This document shows positions 3,939 through 14,405 of a stretch of DNA of 64,000 nt, piece after piece (position 1 is the stretch's first letter; each line of letters starts with the position of its first letter). The translations under genes and the position numbers were made by a program. The stretch spans positions 1,157,664 to 1,221,663 of the forward strand of contig OZ244973.1 of NCBI GenBank assembly GCA_965222885.1. Reading direction: 5' to 3'. A model generated the notes under the pieces. The model was not told where the DNA came from, made no database searches, and saw only the letters and a list, made by a program, of their open reading frames with translations. The stretch comes from Terriglobia bacterium (GTDB lineage: Bacteria > Acidobacteriota > Terriglobia > UBA7540 > JAPUME01).

Positions 3939-4359
3939 CGATCACCAGTGGTCGGAATCATTTCGCCTCAAAATCGTATGAAACTAACAACGATTGTGCA
4001 GAGTCGGCAACCGACTGCTTGCGCAACACTGAACCGAGTCTATCATGTTCTCGGGACCGGAATCTGACCTCACCGAGGACTCGCCGATTGTTCTATAATT
4101 CAAGTACCGAGAACGCAGAGACTCTTTACCAATCCGCCGCGCGGGTCGTGCCCAGGCGCCTGTCTTTGTTCAGCGGAGGATCAATCACAGGAGCGGAAGG
4201 CGTTGCAAGACGACTGAGCCGGTGCCATTGTCGCCAATACCGGATACCCCCTGGTCTGCCTCGGCGCTCCGCTCGGTGGGTGACGGAAACGATCTCGAAC
4301 TGGTGGCTGGGTGAGTTTCTTTCAGGGAGCATCCGCGCTCCCCCCTACTGGGCGGGCTT

Positions 4360-4549
4360 GTTTCCGTATGGTTTTTGTTTTGGGGACGCAGGAAAATGGG
4401 GCAAGACCGACAGGGAAAACATCCACTCGTTAGCCCATCATTCCATAGATGTGGCGGAGGTGTTTGCGCGGATAATGCAGTTGCCGATCATCCTCGACCG
4501 TCTGGAGGAGGTAGCAGCGGGAATTCCACTCGGCCTCGTCACAAGCTAA
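4360..4549 (+). pseudogene. cas3: cas3 HD-domain N-terminal stub
   Basis: WGKTDRENIHSLAHHSIDVAEVFARIMQLP matches the canonical Cas3 N-terminus (WaKt.....hpL..H..DVa.va..l). The frame stops at 4549 after ~55 homologous residues, and no helicase domain follows. Confidence 0.55.
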
Positions 4550-4904
4550 GAAGGTTCTAGAAAAAGGTCAAATTGAGAAATAAGAAAAAAGGCTCGCGGA
4601 TCGAACACGACAAGGCGCTTCTGCAGGTGATGGCGGCTGGTAAATAGGCTGCCGAACGGGGGAACAGATCTCTGTGGAACCCGCTGGTAGTGTCGCCTGA
4701 TGTGGCTCATCGGTCCGCGGGTGCCGAACTACCCACTAAACACGGGTCAGCTACCATGTCCACCCACCACTGCCTATGGTAGGAATGGGCATACTGTGTG
4801 CGCCTTTGGCGCAATTAGGTTAATATGCGGCAGTCCCCGCGGTACATGTACCGACCGCTGTGGCACGGCGCTTGGCCTCCGAAGAAAAGAGGGCTGAAAC
4901 CGAC

Positions 4905-5408
4905 ATGACGAACAATGGCGTAACCACAACCGACTTGGCCTACGCCGAAATCCTCTGGAAATCAGCCGACGCCCTGCGCGGTCAGATCGACGCCGCCGAG
5001 TACAAGCACGTCGTCCTCGGCCTGCTCTTCCTGAAGTACATTTCCGATTCCTTTGAGGCGCGGCGCGGCGAGCTCAAGGGGGAACTGGAAGCCGACGGCA
5101 TCAGCGGGCCTCAGATCGAAAACCTGCTGGAGAGCCGCGATGAGTACACCGCCGAGCGGGTCTTCTGGGTGCCGCCCGAGGCACGCTGGCAGAACCTCCA
5201 GAACCAGGCCGCGCGGCCCGACATCGCCACGCTGATCGACGACGCCATCCTCGCTGTTGAGCGCGACAACCCGAACCTCAAGGGCAAGCTGCCGCGCGAC
5301 TATGCCCGTCGCGGCATCGCGCCGGAGAAGATGAAGGGGCTGATCGATCTGATCGCCGACATCGGCTTCAAGGGCGATCGCGCCAAAGCTCGCGACACGC
5401 TCGGCCGC
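4905..5408 (+). pseudogene. hsdM: Type I R-M methylase HsdM, N-terminal domain only
   Basis: LWKSADALRGQIDAAEYKHVVLGLLFLKYISDSFE is the HsdM_N signature. Homology ends at ...ARDTLGR (5406-5408), where VYEYFL should follow. Beyond that the frame reads the antisense of the helicase fragment. Confidence 0.8.
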
Positions 5409-5614
5409 GATAATGTTGGCAATAGTCTGGGACTTGCCCGTGCCTGGCGGACCCTGCACCACAAGATTCCTGCCCTCGCGAGCCAAAGAAATGACCTGGG
5501 TCTGAAAGGTATCAGCATCCAGGATGTGCCCGAGATCCCTGGGGTCGGGGAAACGCGTGTCGAGGTTTTCGTCGGGAGCAAAGATGCTAGATTCTGGCTC
5601 GAAGCCGCCGACTA

Positions 5615-6734
5615 GTGGACTGTCGCAAAGTAACTTTATCTATGGAAAGGGCGTCTATACAGTATGCCCTTTCAAAGCGAACCGTTCGTGTTGAGCCAAC
5701 AGCAACGATCCGAACTCGAGGAGGTTGCCCGTTCGCAATCGCTGCCCGCCGGCTTTGTCTTACGCGCTCGAATCATCGCGTTACTCGCCGACGGCCTCTC
5801 CTACGCCGCCGTCGCCGACAAACTGGATTGCTCCACACCGACCGTCGGGAAATGGAAGAAACGCTTCCTCGAACACGGACTCGACGGACTGGAAACCCAC
5901 CGTCCCGGGCAACCACCCTCGAAACTCACCGCCCGCTTGCGTGCCAAAATCCTCAATGCCACCCGCCGCCAGCCTGGCGACGGTTCGACCCACTGGTCCT
6001 GCCGCAAACTCGCCAAAGAACTCAGCATCAGCAAAGACTTGGTTCATCGTGTTTGGCGGGAAGCCGATCTCAAGCCGCATCGGTTGGAGCGCTACATGGC
6101 CTCCAACGACCCCGACTTCGAGCGCAAAGCTGCCGACATCATCGGTCTCTACCTCGATCCGCCGCGCCATGCCGCCGTGTTCTGCGTGGACGAAAAGACC
6201 GCTATGCAAGCGCTCGACCGTCGCGACCGCGTCTTGCCGCTGTCCCCTGGACGCGCCGAGCGGCACGGTTTCGAGTACAAGCGCAACGGCACTCTCTCCC
6301 TCTACGCCGCCTTAAACACCAAGACTGGGCAGGTGCATGGGAAGACCGCCGCGCGTCACACCAGCCAGGACTTCGTCGAGTTTCTCGGTGAGGTCGTCGC
6401 CCGCTGCGAGCCCGACCAGGAGATTCACCTCATCCTCGACAACCTCTCGGCTCACAAGACCAAGCAGGTGGCAGCGTTCCTCGAGCGGCACCCCAACGTC
6501 GCCTTACACTTCCCGCCGACTTACTCGTCGTGGCTGAACCAAGTCGAGTTGTGGTTTTCTAAGGTGCAACGCGACGTCATTGCCCGCGGCGTGTTCCCCT
6601 CCACCACCGATCTCGCCCGCAAACTCCGCCGCTACATCAACGCCTACTCGAAAGACGCCAAGCCTTTCCGCTGGAAATACTCCAGGCCCTCCCGCCGCAT
6701 CCGCCATGGTAAAACTATCTCTGCGACAGTCCAC
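5615..6734 (+). mobile_element. Intact IS630-family insertion sequence (1120 bp) with TA target-site duplication
   Basis: The terminal inverted repeats are GTGGACTGTCGCAAAGTAACTTT (5615-) and its imperfect reverse complement ...AGAGATAGTTTT-type, ending in TGCGACAGTCCAC at 6734. TA lies at 5613-5614 and 6735-6736. There is a single transposase ORF. Confidence 0.9.
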
Positions 6735-6737
6735 TAG
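5664..6737 (+). CDS. IS630-family transposase (HTH + DDE)
   Basis: 357 aa with an N-terminal HTH (LSYAAVADKLDCSTPTVGKWKKRF) and DDE_3 motifs (VFCVDEKTAMQALDR, LILDNLSAHK, YSSWLNQVELWF). Confidence 0.95.
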   Translation: MPFQSEPFVLSQQQRSELEEVARSQSLPAGFVLRARIIALLADGLSYAAVADKLDCSTPTVGKWKKRFLEHGLDGLETHRPGQPPSKLTARLRAKILNATRRQPGDGSTHWSCRKLAKELSISKDLVHRVWREADLKPHRLERYMASNDPDFERKAADIIGLYLDPPRHAAVFCVDEKTAMQALDRRDRVLPLSPGRAERHGFEYKRNGTLSLYAALNTKTGQVHGKTAARHTSQDFVEFLGEVVARCEPDQEIHLILDNLSAHKTKQVAAFLERHPNVALHFPPTYSSWLNQVELWFSKVQRDVIARGVFPSTTDLARKLRRYINAYSKDAKPFRWKYSRPSRRIRHGKTISATVH

Positions 6738-7951
6738 GATGCGCTCGAGGATCTCAGTTCCAGCGGTGCCATCCCACATGCTGTTAGGGTCCAGGTCCTT
6801 CCACATCAGGAATTTGGCGAACGAGAAGAATCCCAACTCGATGGTGTTCGGTCGGACGCGCCAGCGCGTCAGCGACGACACTGTCTCCTGGACACGCACG
6901 AAGTAATCCGAAGGCAGCCATTCGTTGCCCTCGGGAAAATCCGGCAGTGTCATACCGAAGTCATTCGACAGCAATGCACGGAGAGAGAGATTCAGCTCTA
7001 GGTCCTGGTCCCTGAAAACGAGTCTAAACCGACCTCGGGCGCTGGTGCGCTCGAGGTCGACCGGAAGCAGGATCAATGGCGCAAAACGCTCAATCTGCGA
7101 AGAGTTATTTTCGTACCAGCGGAGGAAACCCAGGGCGAGGAACAGAACGCTGATCCCCTGCTCCTCTTCGAGGGTCTGAGCGTCCCTATACAGCGTGAGT
7201 AGCTTCTTTTGGAGACGGTCGGCTGTTAGTTGCGTCTGGAGTTTGTTGTCGCTTTGGTAAGCGGCGGCCATTCCAAGCTCGACATCTTCGGTCGGTAAGA
7301 AAACAGACTCATCGTCGCTATCCTCCTCCTCCGAGAAGAGGCCACCTTGAGCGGACTGGAAGCTCATGCTCTTACCTTGGAGGTAGAGGATCTTGAAAAC
7401 CTCGTCGGCCAGCTCATCCTTGATGGTGATCTGCTTGGCCCGATCTTTCCTGATCGGCGCGTTGATGAGCTTGTTGCGTTTCCCGACGTCAAGCAGTTGC
7501 TGTCGGAGATTGTTGACGGCTTTTACCACGCTGCTATCCGGGTGAGAGTCAGGGCGCGTGTGCTTGTCGCTCGCAGATTGATTCATAGTCCCACTTCCAC
7601 CTTGACCGCCTCGATCAACTCGTGTCCTACCATGATGGACGTGCCAGCGATTACCCAATGAACCATGCTAGATTCTTTCCCGATCAGTAAGCTCGTCCAG
7701 CGCTTGAGATCACCCCAAGCGCTGCACTCCTGATTTCTTAGACGAGACAACCTAACACGTGTCGAATCAGATCCTCCACTATAGCCCGGGAGTAACGAAC
7801 ACCGCGAGGAGCACCCTCTTACTACTAACCCCCGGCAGGCAGCCTTACTCCCCGGTAGAAAGCTTCTGAGAGCCGTTTTCAAAGCTTTCCACAGATCGCT
7901 CTGATCCTAGGGGTTTTTCCACGCTGAAACAAGACGACACTCAAGCAGGAT

Positions 7952-8844: not shown

Positions 8845-9990
8845 TTAGAGTCTCAACTGGGACTTTGATGGAATCGCCTTTTTCATCACCGCCTCGGCCT
8901 GCTCCAGGTTCTTGACAGTGCCTGGGAGATCCAGCTTGTTGTCCGGTTTGAAAGCCATCCAGTCGTCCTTCCACCATGCCACAGTCATCCAATTGCCGAT
9001 CACCATCCTATTCGGCTTCATCACCTTGTCCCCACCCGCGGCCTTAACCCGCTCGTGCCAATGCCATTTCAGGTCTTGCTTCTGCTCGCTGGTCTTTCCC
9101 TCTGCGTCAACCTTGAAGCACAGCCTGGCCTCCTCTCCAGGATAGGCTTCGATTTGAAGGTACAATTCGGGATCGGGATTATCTTTCAGCCACCACCAGA
9201 AACCTAGGAACCCCCCGGAGGGGTTAGGAACGTACCCCCATTGGATATGGCGGCAGGTGCCGTTGCCCAACGTGCGTTCGAGGTAAAGATAGAAACCTTC
9301 CCAGCTCCGCCAGGATTCCTGTCCGGCATCCCGGGTCCATTCCACGTAGCTATTGGTTTGGTCCTCCAACTCCCGCAGGTGCTGCCGGAAATCCCACAGG
9401 ATCGAGTTATGGCCCTTGTAGCTGTCGAGCACTTTCAGGAAGTACTTGCGATGGAATACCTTGTAGTTTTTTATGGCCTCGATGCGGCAGTCATTCGCGA
9501 GAGACTGGTTTCCTGTCTTGAGATAAAGCGGGTAGAGATTTATCTCCAGGACCTCGCCGACGAGCTTCGTGCGACCCTCTATGACTTCGTTGTAGTACCT
9601 TTCCAACTGCCTGCCGTGATCCTTGGTGCCCGTCTTGTCCTCAACGAGAAGCACATGCTTGTCATTGATCCGCGCGAGAACGTCGATGCTTCTATCCTGC
9701 TGATGAATCTCTGTCTTGATCTCGTCCTCCAGTTGGATGGGATCTGTGTCGGCCCTCTTGTGATTGAGCAAGGCGAGGACGAACCGGCGGCCGCACCGGC
9801 TCAGTTCTTCCTGCTCCGGTCCGGCGCCTTTCCCCTGGCCTGCCCATTGGATCAACCAGCAGATCATCGCATCCTGCGAGAGTTCCTTGGTGGCGAAGTG
9901 AAACAGGTTGGGATCGCTCAACGGCGTCCAGTATTTCTTGGGTGACTTTACCTTTCCCGGCTTTACATATCCATTGTCGGGTTTGTCCAT
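8845..9990 (-). CDS. PD-(D/E)XK nuclease superfamily protein (PDDEXK_4-like)
   Basis: SIDVLARINDKHVLLVEDKTGTKDHGRQLERYY fits the D...(E/D)xK core with the trailing QL.rY typical of this family. AAGGAGGA lies 7 nt upstream of the ATG. It sits 17 nt downstream of the ankyrin gene. Confidence 0.8.
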   Translation of the reverse strand: MDKPDNGYVKPGKVKSPKKYWTPLSDPNLFHFATKELSQDAMICWLIQWAGQGKGAGPEQEELSRCGRRFVLALLNHKRADTDPIQLEDEIKTEIHQQDRSIDVLARINDKHVLLVEDKTGTKDHGRQLERYYNEVIEGRTKLVGEVLEINLYPLYLKTGNQSLANDCRIEAIKNYKVFHRKYFLKVLDSYKGHNSILWDFRQHLRELEDQTNSYVEWTRDAGQESWRSWEGFYLYLERTLGNGTCRHIQWGYVPNPSGGFLGFWWWLKDNPDPELYLQIEAYPGEEARLCFKVDAEGKTSEQKQDLKWHWHERVKAAGGDKVMKPNRMVIGNWMTVAWWKDDWMAFKPDNKLDLPGTVKNLEQAEAVMKKAIPSKSQLRL

Positions 9991-10007: not shown

Positions 10008-11066
10008 TCAGCGTCGCGCGGCGGTTTTCAGCACCTTGAAAACCTCCGGGTTGTTAACCATTCGGAGTGCAATATCGAGCGTGGTTTGGCCGCCTTTATT
10101 CCGTGCGTTGGGGTCGGCACCCGCATTGAGAAGTGCCTTGAAGATTTCCGCGTTCTCGTTCATTTGAGCCGCCACATGGAGCGGTGTGGCACCGAATTTA
10201 TTCCGTGTGTTTGGATCGATACCAGCCCCGAGAAGGGCTTTGACGATCCCCAGGTTATCACTAAACTCCACGGCCTGATGGAGCAATGTATTACCGTATC
10301 CACCGTACCGGATCATCGGATCGGCGCCTGCGCTTAAAAGCGCCTCGACCATCGCCGGGTTGTGGCGAGCGTTGTACGTCTTTACCGCATCTTGGAGCGG
10401 GGTAGGGGCGTATTCGTGCCGTGCGTTGGGGTCGGCGCCGGCATCGACAAGCGCTTCGATGAGTAACGGATTGCTGCTGTTCCTGACGGCCCAATGCAAC
10501 GGGGTAGTACCATCCATCTGGTCTTGCGCCATCGGCTGGGAGCCGGCATTAAGGCAGGAAACCACATCGTCCAGAGTGGCGAATTCCCAAAAACGCGAGT
10601 CTCTCCAATGCCTGCAATCTACCCATCTCAGTTGCCATTTCTCCCGAGGAGCCGGAGGCTTTCCCCTCTCCGATTTGATCACGTCAAGCATATTCTTCAC
10701 TTGCTTTACGCCCTCCGCACGCCGGACGATTGCACCCGCTTGGAACCGCTCCTCGTTGCTGGCAACCTGCCCGGAGACGGTTACCACTCCCTTGGAGAAG
10801 GTCACGCTGATTTCCCGGTTTTTGAGTTGTGGATTCCTGAAGAGTTGCGATTGAATTTCAGATGCGAACTGCCGGTCAGGTGCTTTTACGACCCGTTGAT
10901 CATCGGACGTGTGCTGTTGTCCGGCAGTGGCAACATTCCTATTTGATGGGTCTCTGGGAAGAAAAGAGCCGCCAATCCCCATCATAACCACGGAGACGAA
11001 AATACCTAATATGGCTCGCTTGCGATTCATATATAGGCGTTTGATCGGCTTTATCAGACAGACCAT
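10008..11066 (-). CDS. Membrane-anchored BON-domain plus ankyrin-repeat protein
   Basis: N-terminal TM segment (ILGIFVSVVMMGIGG; likely start Met13 at 11030), a BON-like segment (ISVTFSKGVVTVSGQVASNEERFQAGAIVRRAEGVKQVKNML), then about 5 ankyrin repeats (TPLHWAV...AGADPNAR). Confidence 0.85.
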   Translation of the reverse strand: MVCLIKPIKRLYMNRKRAILGIFVSVVMMGIGGSFLPRDPSNRNVATAGQQHTSDDQRVVKAPDRQFASEIQSQLFRNPQLKNREISVTFSKGVVTVSGQVASNEERFQAGAIVRRAEGVKQVKNMLDVIKSERGKPPAPREKWQLRWVDCRHWRDSRFWEFATLDDVVSCLNAGSQPMAQDQMDGTTPLHWAVRNSSNPLLIEALVDAGADPNARHEYAPTPLQDAVKTYNARHNPAMVEALLSAGADPMIRYGGYGNTLLHQAVEFSDNLGIVKALLGAGIDPNTRNKFGATPLHVAAQMNENAEIFKALLNAGADPNARNKGGQTTLDIALRMVNNPEVFKVLKTAARR

Positions 11067-11104: not shown

Positions 11105-11128
11105 TTCGGAATTTCCTAGATTAAGGTA
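11105..11128. repeat. Left terminal inverted repeat TTCGGAATTTCCTAGATTAAGGTA
   Basis: Exact reverse complement of 14243-14266. Confidence 0.9.
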
Positions 11129-11199
11129 TTGACAACCGCCCTAATCCGTGAGAAAATGTTTCTGCGATTGAAACAGACCCCACGGAAAGGACGGTTGCC

Positions 11200-12072
11200 A
11201 TGGACATTATACAGATTTTCCAACGGTTCCCCACTCAAAAAGACTGCATCTCCCACCTTGAGAAAGCCCGCTGGAACGGCACCCCACGTTGCCCCTACTG
11301 CACGTCAACCCGCACGACCAGGATGCAGCTTCGCCATCATTGCTATGAGTGCCACACCTCGTTCAGCGTTACCGTGCGCACCATCTTCCACCATACTCAC
11401 CTGCCGATTCAGAAATGGTTTCTGGCCGTCATCCTGATTCTGAACGCCAAGAAAAGCGTATCGGCTCTCCAACTCTCCCGCGACCTCAAGGTGAACAAGA
11501 ACACCGCCTGGCGGATTGCCATGCAGATTCGGAAGGCCATGACGCAGGCCGAACAACGCAACCTACTCACCGGCATTGTCGAAATGGATGAGACCTATAT
11601 CGGGGGAAAGCCACGGAAAGGTAGCGGGGATCATACTTCCAAGCGGGGCCGGGGAACCGACAAGGCCACAGTGATCGGAGCCGTGGAGCGTGAGGGCCGA
11701 GTGACTGCTAGAAGCGTTATGAAGGGCAAGCTCAAAGGCCGCAACCTGCGGTCCTTCGTGCGAGAGAAAATCGACGCCAAGGACGCCATGCTGATTACCG
11801 ATGAGTACACTGGCTACCGCGGCATGGAGCGGGTACTGCCCCACGCCGTCATCAATCACAGCCGGACCTACGCCGACGGCCCCATCCATACGAACACCAT
11901 CGAGGGATTTTGGGCCCTTCTCAAGCGCGGGATGTTCGGCCAGTTCCACAGTGTGAGCCGACACCACCTGCAACGCTACATCGACGAGTTTTGCTACCGC
12001 TACAACCTGCGGCACGAGAAGCCGGAATCCGCCTTTGATATGACGATCAATCTCGGACTTGGAGTTGAATAA
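11200..12072 (+). CDS. IS1595-family (ISXO2-like) DDE transposase with an N-terminal zinc ribbon
   Basis: CPYCTS...CYECH zinc ribbon, VEMDETYIGGK, LITDEYTGY, NTIEGFWALLKRG and YIDEFCYRYN are classic IS1595 motifs. Confidence 0.9.
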   Translation: MDIIQIFQRFPTQKDCISHLEKARWNGTPRCPYCTSTRTTRMQLRHHCYECHTSFSVTVRTIFHHTHLPIQKWFLAVILILNAKKSVSALQLSRDLKVNKNTAWRIAMQIRKAMTQAEQRNLLTGIVEMDETYIGGKPRKGSGDHTSKRGRGTDKATVIGAVEREGRVTARSVMKGKLKGRNLRSFVREKIDAKDAMLITDEYTGYRGMERVLPHAVINHSRTYADGPIHTNTIEGFWALLKRGMFGQFHSVSRHHLQRYIDEFCYRYNLRHEKPESAFDMTINLGLGVE

Positions 12073-12980
12073 TGAAGGAATCCAAGGAACAGCCTTTGAA
12101 GGTGATCGCCGGAGCACCGGACCGGCCACTTGTGATCGGGAACATCGAGATACCCTGCTACGTACTGGAAGATGAAACCCGTGTACTGAGTCAGCGTGGA
12201 GTAAGCGAGGGGATCGGACTCAACCCAAAGGCCGGCTTTAGAATGCCTCATTTCATGGCCTCTAAAGCAATAAACCCTTTTGTTTCCGATGATTTAGTGC
12301 CGGCTTTGAAATCACCCATCCCATTCAAGAATCCAGTTGGAGGAGGGAATGCTTACGGCTATCCAGCTACCATTCTTCCTAAAATCTGTGCAGCCGTTAT
12401 TGAAGCCAAGAATAAAGGAAAACTGCGACCGCAACATATGAAAGCAGCCGAACGTTGCTGGATTATTATGCAAGGATTTGCGCACGTCGGCATCATCGCT
12501 CTTGTTGACGAAGCAACTGGATACCAGGATCTGCGTGACCGACAGATACTCCAGAAGATACTCGATAAGTATCTTCTGGCAGAGCGTGCAAAATGGGCGA
12601 AGCGATTTCCAGATGATTTCTATAAGGAGATATTTAGGCTTCGTGGATGGCAATGGCAGGGAATGAGAGTTAACCGACCTCAAGTAGTAGCTCATTATAC
12701 GAATGATATTGTGTGGGATCGCCTTGCCCCAGGAGTGCGCGAAGAGCTTGAGAAATTAAATCCTCAAACCCCCCAAGGAACGCGGCGGGCAAGACACCAT
12801 CAATGGCTGACACATGACATTGGTCATCCTTCCCTTCAGAAGCACCTTTACGGAGTTATTGCACTTATGAAGTCAGTAGTTCAATCCAAGGGCGGATGGG
12901 GAGAATTTAAGCGAAGGATTCAACGTGTATTTCCCAAGATTCACACAACCCTCGACCTTCCGTTCAATGAGGATGGGTAG
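12072..12980 (+). CDS. P63C-domain protein (phage-derived DNA-associated domain)
   Basis: ALVDEATGYQDLRDRQILQKILDKYL...WAKRFPDDFYKEIFRLRGW...NDIVWDRLAPGVREEL matches my recollection of the P63C domain. The ATG overlaps the tnp stop (TAATG). Confidence 0.6.
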   Translation: MKESKEQPLKVIAGAPDRPLVIGNIEIPCYVLEDETRVLSQRGVSEGIGLNPKAGFRMPHFMASKAINPFVSDDLVPALKSPIPFKNPVGGGNAYGYPATILPKICAAVIEAKNKGKLRPQHMKAAERCWIIMQGFAHVGIIALVDEATGYQDLRDRQILQKILDKYLLAERAKWAKRFPDDFYKEIFRLRGWQWQGMRVNRPQVVAHYTNDIVWDRLAPGVREELEKLNPQTPQGTRRARHHQWLTHDIGHPSLQKHLYGVIALMKSVVQSKGGWGEFKRRIQRVFPKIHTTLDLPFNEDG

Positions 12981-12982
12981 AG

Positions 12983-14206
12983 ATGCCTCAAAACTGGAAC
13001 AATCGCACCATGTGGACAGGCGACAACCTGGACATAATGCGCGGCATGAACTCCGAGAGCGTTGACCTTATTTACCTGGACCCTCCCTTCAACAGCAATC
13101 GCACGTACAGCGCGCCTATTGGCTCTCAGGCAGCCGGAGCCGCCTTCAAGGATACCTGGACCTTGAGCGACGTGGACAACGCCTGGCATGGCGAGATCGC
13201 GGACCGGCAACCAGCCTTGTACTCGATCATCGACGCTGCCGGTCACTCGCATGGCAAGGGCATGAAGTCCTACCTCATTATGATGGCCGTCCGGCTCCTG
13301 GAAATGCGAAGGATTTTGAAGGAAACGGGGAGCTTGTATTTGCACTGCGATCCGACCGCCAGCCATTACCTCAAATCACTCATGGATGCGATATTTGGGG
13401 CGGGAAACTTCAGAAATGAGATCGTGTGGTGCTATCGAGGGGGGGGGGTGCCCAAGTATGACTTTGCCCGCAAGCACGATATTTTGTTCCGATATTCAAA
13501 GACTGAAAACGTTGTTTTCAATGTGGATGCCGTTCGGGTAGCGTACTCTGAAGATTCGTCTGAACGCCTAAAGTATAAAGCCCGTTCGTTTCGGGAAAGT
13601 GGAACCTATGACAACTACAATCAGAACCCCAGGGGCAAGCATCCTGAAGATTGGTGGCCTATGCAGCCGATCATGCCATCATCCAAAGAACGAGTAGGCT
13701 ATCCCACTCAAAAGCCCCTCGCCCTATTAGATCGCATCATCAAGGCCAGCTCCAACGAAGGCAACCTAGTTCTGGACCCCTTTGCTGGATGCGCCACGGC
13801 TTGCGTGGCCGCCGAACGCCTGCATCGGCAATGGGTGGGCATCGACATATCGGAGAAGGCCGCCGAACTCGTACAGGTCCGCATCCGCAGGGAAATCGAC
13901 CTTTTCCATGACTTCAAGCCGATCCGCCGTTCGGAGGTTCCCCAGCGCACCGATCTAGGAAAGCTGCCGAACTACCGGACGCACAAGCATCAATTATTTG
14001 GAAAGCAGGAAGGACACTGCCGGGGGTGCAGGGTAGCCTTTCCGTTCCGCAACTTCACGGTGGACCACGTGGTTCCGAGAACGCGCGGTGGGACCGACCA
14101 CCTAGATAACCTCCAGCTGCTCTGTGGTGCCTGCAATAGCCTGAAGGGAGACCGAGAACAGCAATACCTGGTTGCCAAACTGCGTGAACAAGGGATACTC
14201 TCATAG
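12983..14206 (+). CDS. Beta-class N4/N6 DNA methyltransferase fused to a C-terminal HNH nuclease
   Basis: Motif IV DLIYLDPPFNS lies near the N-terminus and motif I VLDPFAGCATACVAAERL later, which is the beta-class order. The C-terminal CRGC...DHVVPRTRGGTDHLDNLQLLCGACNSLKG is a canonical zinc HNH. Confidence 0.9.
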   Translation: MPQNWNNRTMWTGDNLDIMRGMNSESVDLIYLDPPFNSNRTYSAPIGSQAAGAAFKDTWTLSDVDNAWHGEIADRQPALYSIIDAAGHSHGKGMKSYLIMMAVRLLEMRRILKETGSLYLHCDPTASHYLKSLMDAIFGAGNFRNEIVWCYRGGGVPKYDFARKHDILFRYSKTENVVFNVDAVRVAYSEDSSERLKYKARSFRESGTYDNYNQNPRGKHPEDWWPMQPIMPSSKERVGYPTQKPLALLDRIIKASSNEGNLVLDPFAGCATACVAAERLHRQWVGIDISEKAAELVQVRIRREIDLFHDFKPIRRSEVPQRTDLGKLPNYRTHKHQLFGKQEGHCRGCRVAFPFRNFTVDHVVPRTRGGTDHLDNLQLLCGACNSLKGDREQQYLVAKLREQGILS

Positions 14207-14242
14207 TCCCAGATTGTCGAGCAGTTAGTAGCCTATTGTCTG

Positions 14243-14266
14243 TACCTTAATCTAGGAAATTCCGAA
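14243..14266. repeat. Right terminal inverted repeat TACCTTAATCTAGGAAATTCCGAA
   Basis: Exact reverse complement of 11105-11128. Confidence 0.9.
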
Positions 14267-14295: not shown

Positions 14296-14405
14296 ATCTC
14301 CCCTCACTTCGGTGAGGGGAGCGGATTGAAACGTAGTAAGAGTAGAGACCGTGCCTTTTGATCTCCACATCTCCCCTCACTTCGGTGAGGGGAGCGGATT
14401 GAAAC
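14296..14405 (+). CRISPR. Minimal CRISPR array: two 37-nt repeats and one 36-nt spacer
   Basis: The repeat ATCTCCCCTCACTTCGGTGAGGGGAGCGGATTGAAAC occurs at 14296-14332 and 14369-14405 (identical). It has an internal 8-bp stem with a TTCG loop and a 3' ATTGAAAC tag. The spacer is GTAGTAAGAGTAGAGACCGTGCCTTTTGATCTCCAC. Confidence 0.7.

Follow-up and report, generated by a model that had tools for sequence, protein, structure and literature searches.

Introduction

IS1595-family insertion sequences (IS) usually generate 8-bp duplications and carry a single transposase gene, the product of which has a zinc-finger N-terminus and a DDE_Tnp_IS1595 domain (PMC8101967). The family is divided into seven groups, including ISNha5, and only the IS1016 group lacks the zinc ribbon (PMC8101967). 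IS that carry passenger genes are referred to as transporter IS (tIS), and a passage of PMC11891212, itself citing Siguier 2009, mentions ISNha5 with transcription regulators. A passage of PMC2853133 credits Siguier 2009 and three other studies with restriction-modification (RM) systems or solitary methylase genes flanked by IS elements, and the same paper (Furuta, Abe & Kobayashi 2010) describes RM units that lack a transposase, are bounded by imperfect terminal inverted repeats and are flanked by 8-bp duplications. Here, we analyse an element located at 11107-14264 of a 64,000-nucleotide stretch of DNA from a Terriglobia bacterium (assembly GCA_965222885.1, contig OZ244973.1, positions 1,157,664 to 1,221,663, forward strand), hereafter the window. 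It encodes, in this order, a transposase (gene tnp), a P63C-domain protein and a methyltransferase-HNH fusion (methylase-HNH), and we conclude, with a probability of roughly 0.85, that it is an intact, autonomous tIS of the IS1595 family. RM genes are known to move between distant bacteria, and the vehicles involved are rarely identified; the family to which this element belongs appears to consist of such vehicles, small (2-4 kb), autonomous and caught soon after moving, with methylase-nuclease modules swapped in one slot.

With the described IS1595 tIS (ISNha5, ISNwi1+ and ISPna2+ groups), the locus has in common the DDE_Tnp_IS1595 domain, the zinc ribbon, terminal repeats, 8-bp duplications within the family and internal passengers. 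It differs from published descriptions of them in having a fixed P63C second gene and a swappable RM slot, the comparison with ISNha5 being one of descriptions only. It resembles the Furuta units, whose RM genes are likewise bounded by imperfect terminal inverted repeats and whose insertion duplicated 8 bp of the target; those units, however, have no transposase and their mover was not identified, whereas here the transposase lies inside the repeats, making the element an autonomous vehicle. A preliminary description of the locus had stated that some IS1595 members carry passenger genes, as is indeed found in the passages cited above, solitary methylases being among these passengers (PMC11891212, PMC2853133). 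It had also considered the cargo arrangement unfamiliar. This holds for the P63C partner and the RM slot, and not for passengers as such, since IS1595 passengers including methylases have been known since 2009. A limited literature search returned no description of a transposase-P63C core or of an RM cargo slot. Of most interest here are the conserved P63C partner, the RM-exchanging slot and the clear signs of recent cross-phylum mobility; the kind of element is already known.

Terminal repeats and transposase

The sequence TTCGGAATTTCCTAGATTAAGGTA, at 11105-11128 on the forward strand, recurs at 14243-14266 on the reverse strand with 0 mismatches, and the inverted repeat reaches inward to 11135 and 14236, giving 31 nt with 2 mismatches. 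No third copy of TTCGGAATTTCCTAGATTAAGGTA is present in the window at up to 3 mismatches, the expected number of matches (100 shuffles) being 0. The element ends were defined by the 8-bp duplications that flank its relatives (see below), and these place the true ends at CGG...CCG. Flanking sequence diverges between copies immediately outside the CGG; the element therefore runs from 11107 to 14264 (3158 bp), and the outer TT/AA of the 24-mer is flanking DNA, its complementarity being a matter of chance. The perfect 24-nt inverted repeat of the preliminary description is borne out, its outermost bases lying outside the element. Within the element, the repeat is perfect over 22 nt and comprises 29 nt with 2 mismatches: the left terminal inverted repeat (11107-11135, forward strand) starts with CGGAATTTCC, its first 22 nt (11107-11128) pairing perfectly with the right end, and the right terminal inverted repeat (14236-14264, reverse strand) closes the element with ...GGAAATTCCG. 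An alignment of 24 elements gives the consensus CGGAATTTCCTAG(T/A)TTAAGGTCTT for both of their ends. In relatives, the conserved repeat sits about 95 nt upstream of tnp and its inverted copy 1.9-4.2 kb downstream, with CGGAATT forming both termini in the window element and in most relatives. These ends fit CGGnnTT, the end motif of the ISNha5 group in the ISfinder table.

Three long open reading frames (ORFs) fill the interval between the repeats and all their Pfam domains score well above curated cut-offs; ORF listing and Pfam matches thus agree with the earlier count of exactly three genes inside the repeats. The first gene (11200-12072, forward strand) encodes a 290-aa transposase that matches Pfam DDE_Tnp_IS1595 (E 6e-36) and Zn_ribbon_IS1595 (E 5e-08, above cut-off) as well as the NCBIfam transposase model transpos_IS1595 (E 2e-62, above its cut-off). 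The protein is full length, and retains all four zinc-ribbon cysteines (C31/C34/C48/C51, at least 97% conserved among 35 relatives) and all catalytic residues (D130, D201 and E235, which, together with K242/R243 about seven residues beyond E235, are conserved in 33-35 of the 35). Among the protein matches listed, the closest transposases (88-92% identity) also precede P63C, and their cargo varies. Against plasmid records, the transposase has no relative above 39% identity, and no Nitrobacter is among the matches listed.

Related elements and movement of the whole unit

Relatives were collected by a transposase-based genome scan using one genome per species, in which 80 loci (labelled L with a number) were kept of at least 549 stretches encoding a relative. 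The best of the 80 related transposases is 75% identical to that of the window, and the locus labels include Binatia, Poribacteria, Latescibacterota, Acidobacteriota, Dehalococcoidia, and Alpha- and Gammaproteobacteria. Among relatives of at least 52% identity, a P63C gene directly follows tnp in 30 of 33, the exceptions being L028, L031 and L032. The conserved repeat encloses tnp and the P63C gene in all 30 elements for which both ends are defined, with sizes of 1871-4153 bp; members of the ISNha5 group span 3450-7900 bp, a range whose lower bound lies slightly above the 3158 bp of the window element.

Perfect 8-bp direct repeats lie just outside CGG...CCG in 14 of these 30 elements, and one more matches at 7 of 8 positions. 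The mean A+T content of the duplications is 84%, the loci themselves having 40-62% G+C. Three of the 14 combine a perfect duplication with the same tnp-P63C-methylase-HNH content as the window, namely L008 (TTTAAAAA), L009 (ATTTTAAA) and L087 (TTCTTTAA), the last inserted between thiG and a TMP-TENI-family (thiE-like) gene. Evidence of recent movement comes from three same-genome pairs, L005/L006, L013/L014 and L092/L093, the members of which are 1 nt apart over 2.4-3.3 kb and have unrelated flanks: as they differ by only 1 nt, whole elements, cargo included, moved recently. L092 and L093 (each 4024-7316) are inverted tnp-P63C-methylase-HNH copies in one 3.14-Mb contig. The 8 bp to the left of one copy are identical to the 8 bp to the right of the other (TTTTCTTT) and the other pair of flanks does not match, which is the expected pattern, and hence the likely signature, of a large inversion by recombination between inverted copies. 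The smallest elements, L021 (1871 bp), L003 (2009 bp) and L024 (2169 bp), contain tnp and the P63C gene only.

Together, the duplications at the outer repeats, the L092/L093 pair and the lack of any tnp-only relative support the view, already expressed in the preliminary description, that the whole 3.16 kb is one mobile unit. In this mechanism, the transposase would bind both repeats and move the 3.16 kb as one. Judging from its relatives, the window element belongs to a large group, apparently not described before, that appears to move RM genes between unrelated bacteria. For annotation, its three genes are better treated as one mobile unit than as a chromosomal methylase.

A more distant IS1595 clade (L039-L082, for example L050-L052, L045, L062 and L071), with 45-51% transposase identity, has no P63C and has ends starting CGCAATAAGTAG... 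or CGGAATAAGTAG.... In about half of the clade, tnp is immediately followed by a methylase gene, in three cases with an HNH (L060, L062, L071), and several members are multicopy in Poribacteria genomes.

IS3-family elements (HTH_Tnp_1 and rve) were also observed in, or directly after, IS1595 elements in L018 (7400-9620) and L101 (6315-7262), the insertion in L101 taking the place of most of the P63C gene. Solitary extra terminal repeats occur as a tandem second right end in L073 (8073-8116) and as an extra left end downstream in L018 (11480); these may be remnants or neighbouring elements.

Conserved genes and exchangeable cargo

Comparison of the related elements shows that the transposase and P63C genes form a conserved core and that the third position is a variable cargo slot. 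The slot holds methylase-HNH in the window, L008, L009, L087 and L092/L093, and degraded versions of it in L011, L037 and L100. Elsewhere, it holds a methylase fused to an Mrr-type nuclease (L010), an N6_N4 methylase with an Eco47II endonuclease (L016), a methylase with a His-Me/endonuclease VII-type nuclease (L023), DUF6731 with a membrane protein (L007), a RAMA-domain protein (L025), a ClpP-like protein (L026), an M8-peptidase-like protein (L019), a nested IS3 (L018) or nothing (L003, L021, L024). The minimal elements in this last group lack methylase-HNH and carry perfect duplications, and methylase-HNH is therefore dispensable for transposition. The preliminary description had regarded both P63C and methylase-HNH as cargo: methylase-HNH is optional and exchangeable as cargo should be, while P63C is part of the conserved core. 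It had also suggested that the HNH might assist mobility, a suggestion that the transposition of elements without HNH contradicts; a requirement for the HNH in transposition was rejected on the same grounds, perfect duplications flanking elements devoid of it.

The nearest relative is different for each of the three window genes. Identities to L087 are 71% for tnp, 50% for P63C and 77% for the methylase; to L092, 72%, 76% and 52%; and to L009, 73%, 48% and 69%. G+C content is also uneven, at about 0.57-0.60 over tnp, 0.47-0.50 over P63C and 0.51-0.58 over the methylase, with a dip within 11800-13000, which would fit a mosaic origin of the three genes.

Gene coupling and predicted control at the left end

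The three genes are closely packed. In the TAATG at 12070-12074, the tnp stop codon TAA (12070-12072) overlaps the P63C ATG (12072-12074), and the P63C stop codon TAG (12978-12980) is followed after a gap of 2 nt by the methylase ATG at 12983; direct reading of the sequence confirms the coupling geometry that had been reported. The overlap between tnp stop and P63C start is 1 nt in the window and 4 nt (ATGA-type) in most elements, the cargo gene starting a few nt later. An inward promoter candidate, conserved in the left ends of relatives, was found where the preliminary description had placed it, at 11129-11157 (forward strand): its -35 box TTGACA (11129-11134) touches the repeat and is followed by a 17-nt spacer and the -10 box TGaGAAAAT (to 11157). 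TTGACA-N17-GAAAAT is the top promoter-like match in the region (10/12, with a TG before the -10), and in nearly all elements TTGACA adjoins the left repeat with a -10-like box at the correct spacing. We infer that 11129-11157 is a candidate promoter for a three-gene operon. Such a promoter, with its -35 against the left repeat, would drive a single tnp-P63C-methylase mRNA, translation of which would be coupled through the overlapping or abutting stop and start codons.

The left end is also predicted to fold back on itself. An upstream arm (11127-11152, forward strand), which lies before the predicted transcription start, can pair with a downstream arm (11176-11202, forward strand) that spans the ribosome-binding site (AAGGA) and the ATG of tnp. 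In terms of the element, nt 21-46 are complementary to the 24 nt preceding the tnp ATG and to the ATG itself. RNAalifold on the left ends returned no useful structure, the alignment being out of register around indels, and duplex energies of own-partner and mismatched pairs were used in its place. Of 23 partners, the window's own gives the strongest duplex (-23.8 kcal/mol). The mean over 23 elements is -19.7 kcal/mol with the own partner versus -11.4 kcal/mol for mismatched pairs, and in most of them the own partner is among the top three, so the pairing appears to covary between elements. Because the upstream arm precedes the predicted transcription start, it would be carried only by read-through transcripts from outside the element; in these, it would pair with the tnp ribosome-binding site and ATG and block translation. 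IS10 and IS50 have a comparable control, in which sequence lying before the element's own transcription start can pair with the ribosome-binding site and start codon of tnp, and transcripts entering from outside do not yield transposase. These are, however, unrelated IS families, and the fold-back described here is a prediction from sequence alone.

The P63C partner

The second gene (12072-12980, forward strand), intact in the window copy, encodes a 302-aa protein that matches Pfam P63C (PF10546; E 8e-34; 116.6 bits versus a cut-off of 26.1). In its confident AlphaFold model (pLDDT 85), about residues 8-100 form an N-terminal β-rich domain, and the helical C-terminal part includes the Pfam P63C domain (163-255). 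The protein matches phrog_2384 over its full length (5e-96), its P63C part matches the 'anti-repressor Ant' family, and its best structural match among viral models is Mx8 p63. The N-terminal domain gives short, weak matches to BRO, Bro-N and Ant-N, and its 158 residues have no Pfam match even at E 10. The protein is similar to Mx8 p63 and the BRO/Ant-type regulators, linkage to a transposase not being a described property of that family, and is probably DNA-binding. A sequence search against solved structures gave no match, Foldseek against the PDB gave nothing significant (best hit DdrC, E 0.02, TM 0.22), none of the PADLOC models matched, and a literature search for the P63C domain returned incidental mentions only. 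An exact-sequence contig look-up found the protein on two short contigs only. The linkage to tnp is the first strong genomic association for the P63C family, and the element provides a simple system for testing P63C function.

Full-length homologues (30-47% identity) are found in accessory positions of plasmids and temperate phages: before a large DNA methyltransferase gene (Methylorubrum pMPPM01), beside a LlaMI-type endonuclease gene (Acinetobacter larvae pRW2), near an Abi gene (Paraburkholderia), before dndB (Euhalothece), and between repressor and integrase (Streptococcus Javan515, Gordonia Petra). These contexts suggest a defence- or exclusion-linked accessory gene, while the fixed, coupled position behind tnp would rather point to a function in the life cycle of the element itself. 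The pair L005/L006 (6882-7811) bears on this question. Both members carry a P63C gene with the same two in-frame stops near codon 55, leaving a 239-aa C-terminal ORF, and each has its own perfect target duplication; the element therefore transposed even though its P63C gene was damaged. The observation counts against an essential cis role for P63C without being decisive, given the 239-aa ORF and possible supply in trans.

The methylase-HNH fusion

The third gene (12983-14206, forward strand) encodes a 407-aa protein with Pfam N6_N4_Mtase (E 5e-47) and HNH (E 7e-12) domains. The methylase has the β-class layout, with DPPF at residues 33-36 and DPFAGC at 265-270, and the C-terminal HNH has a full set of catalytic residues, comprising both CxxC pairs (C346/C349 and C381/C384), the catalytic pair D361-H362 and the asparagines N376 and N385. 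DPPF usually marks N6-adenine methylation. Across 38 homologues, no variation is seen in DPPF, the FxGxG-like motif, D361-H362, C346/C349/C381/C384 or N385, and N376 is kept in at least 90%. PADLOC models for type II and type III methyltransferases both match the protein. This is a very large family, with E 1e-5 passed by every one of the 8000 candidates scored and the methylase-HNH architecture common to all 120 matches listed. Among the matches found, the closest (84%) stands alone, with neither tnp nor P63C beside it. The fusion is solitary among housekeeping genes in L090/L091 and L094, and lies in a prophage-like block of small genes in L089.

Single-chain RM enzymes of Type IIG/IIC also combine methyltransferase and nuclease in one polypeptide with no partner gene, as in the MmeI family (PMC2731913) and in LlaGI with its Mrr-type nuclease (PMC2790908). 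The window enzyme differs from these in its C-terminal HNH nuclease and its small β-class N6_N4 methylase, and is known from sequence alone. We somewhat favour the reading that it is a single-chain m6A-type RM or addiction module which would protect the host, stabilise the element, or both. This restriction reading is preferred because sister elements hold three other methylase-nuclease kinds in the same slot, and the addiction or restriction-type module put forward in the preliminary description fits well with the two-gene RM systems and the methylase-Mrr fusion found there.

Alternative interpretations

Several observations weigh against the picture of an intact, autonomous tIS with a dedicated RM cargo. 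The window copy has no 8-bp target duplication, the two flanks (TAATAATT versus AAATTGTA) agreeing at 4 of 8 positions, and inspection of the flanks revealed none at shifted end positions either; the window contains no second copy of the element; shuffled sequence yields promoter-like matches at least as often as the region does; the occurrence of the fusion alone and in a prophage-like region fits a homing or phage role equally well; and the strictly kept position and coupling of P63C point to a core function for it. One could suppose that the insertion sequence simply ends after tnp, the repeats being unrelated to the cargo and the downstream genes ordinary neighbours. This is very improbable, has nothing in its favour and was refuted: in 14 elements the duplications flank the outer repeats, not one of the 30 relatives stops after tnp, as the preliminary description had anticipated, and there is no alternative right-end repeat between tnp and P63C, where the coding sequences overlap. 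That the window copy is an immobilised relic, structurally intact yet fixed after a rearrangement and with genes that are now plain chromosomal genes, is a more serious proposition, although we consider it rather unlikely. It would account for the missing duplication and for the single copy in the window; in addition, identical transposase and methylase proteins are recorded on one 4.04-Mb contig only, although look-ups of contigs by exact sequence were empty for both, and a truncated CRISPR-type array begins 30 nt beyond the right end, as a neighbouring deletion might have left it. Its three full-length ORFs with intact catalytic residues, and repeats still perfect over 22 nt, are not what a relic would lead one to expect. 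Moreover, 16 of the 30 elements compared likewise lack a perfect duplication, and in L092/L093 flanks were swapped by recombination without inactivating the element. In the window, too, the duplication may have been lost through recombination with a copy that has since disappeared, or through a deletion next to the element. The absence concerns the history of this copy and not the kind of element, 14 of 30 relatives having a perfect duplication.

The roles of the two genes behind tnp are less firmly assigned. P63C might be not cargo but a second transposition protein, a DNA-binding cofactor or regulator acting on the ends, the target or the left-repeat promoter. Its position directly after tnp in 30 of 33 relatives across many phyla, minimal elements included, the ATGA-type overlap kept in most of them and the weak likeness of its N-terminal domain to Bro-N and Ant-N DNA-binding folds speak for such a function, which we nonetheless regard as doubtful: L005/L006 moved with P63C interrupted by two stops, the distant IS1595 relatives do without it, about half having a methylase in its place, and full-length homologues occur without a transposase in phage and plasmid regions, near methylase, restriction endonuclease, Abi and DndB genes or repressor and integrase. 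There is perhaps an even chance that P63C is a conserved passenger serving in defence, exclusion or regulation, and this is likelier than an essential transposition factor. More speculatively still, transposase and P63C could constitute a two-protein unit in which P63C is an unrecognised IS accessory factor (in end or target binding, or retention) and the slot behind it a dedicated cargo site, the whole being a cross-phylum shuttle for RM and defence genes in symbiont communities. As for methylase-HNH, it could be a selfish nuclease of the homing type, from which its own methylase protects the carrier genome, or an orphan methylase with a protective role, by which the element survives entry into new hosts. 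The solitary and prophage-like settings of the fusion, the sheer size of its family and the predominance of methylases without a nuclease domain in IS relatives at 45-51% identity are in keeping with one or the other. Both seem to us on the improbable side, since methylase-endonuclease pairs and the methylase-Mrr fusion in the slot of sister elements make methylase plus nuclease a recurring theme, and the invariant or nearly invariant catalytic and zinc-binding residues of the HNH indicate a nuclease under selection. The RM or addiction module thus remains our preferred reading of the cargo.

Genomic surroundings

Beyond the right end, a pair of identical 37-nt repeats (ATCTCCCCTCACTTCGGTGAGGGGAGCGGATTGAAAC) with a 36-nt spacer between them occupies 14296-14405, starting 30 nt from the element. 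Each forms a 10-bp hairpin with a ATTGAAAC tail (-20 kcal/mol, z -4.1) and matches Rfam CRISPR-DR9 at 30.9 bits (E 3.5e-4), which is below the gathering score. Further copies of the repeat were found neither in the window nor in related loci. These repeats look like an orphan or truncated host CRISPR array, and are possibly related to the missing target duplication; that they form part of the element was rejected, the repeat being absent from all related loci.

On the left, a gene for a BON-domain and ankyrin-repeat protein (10008-11066, reverse strand) starts 40 nt from the end of the element, which places the insertion in the promoter region of that gene. Further left, 8845-9990 (reverse strand) encodes a 381-aa protein of the PD-(D/E)XK_4 nuclease family with a weak match (E 1.5e-7) to PADLOC PDC-S26, a candidate defence family, and this gene may mark a small defence neighbourhood beside the element.

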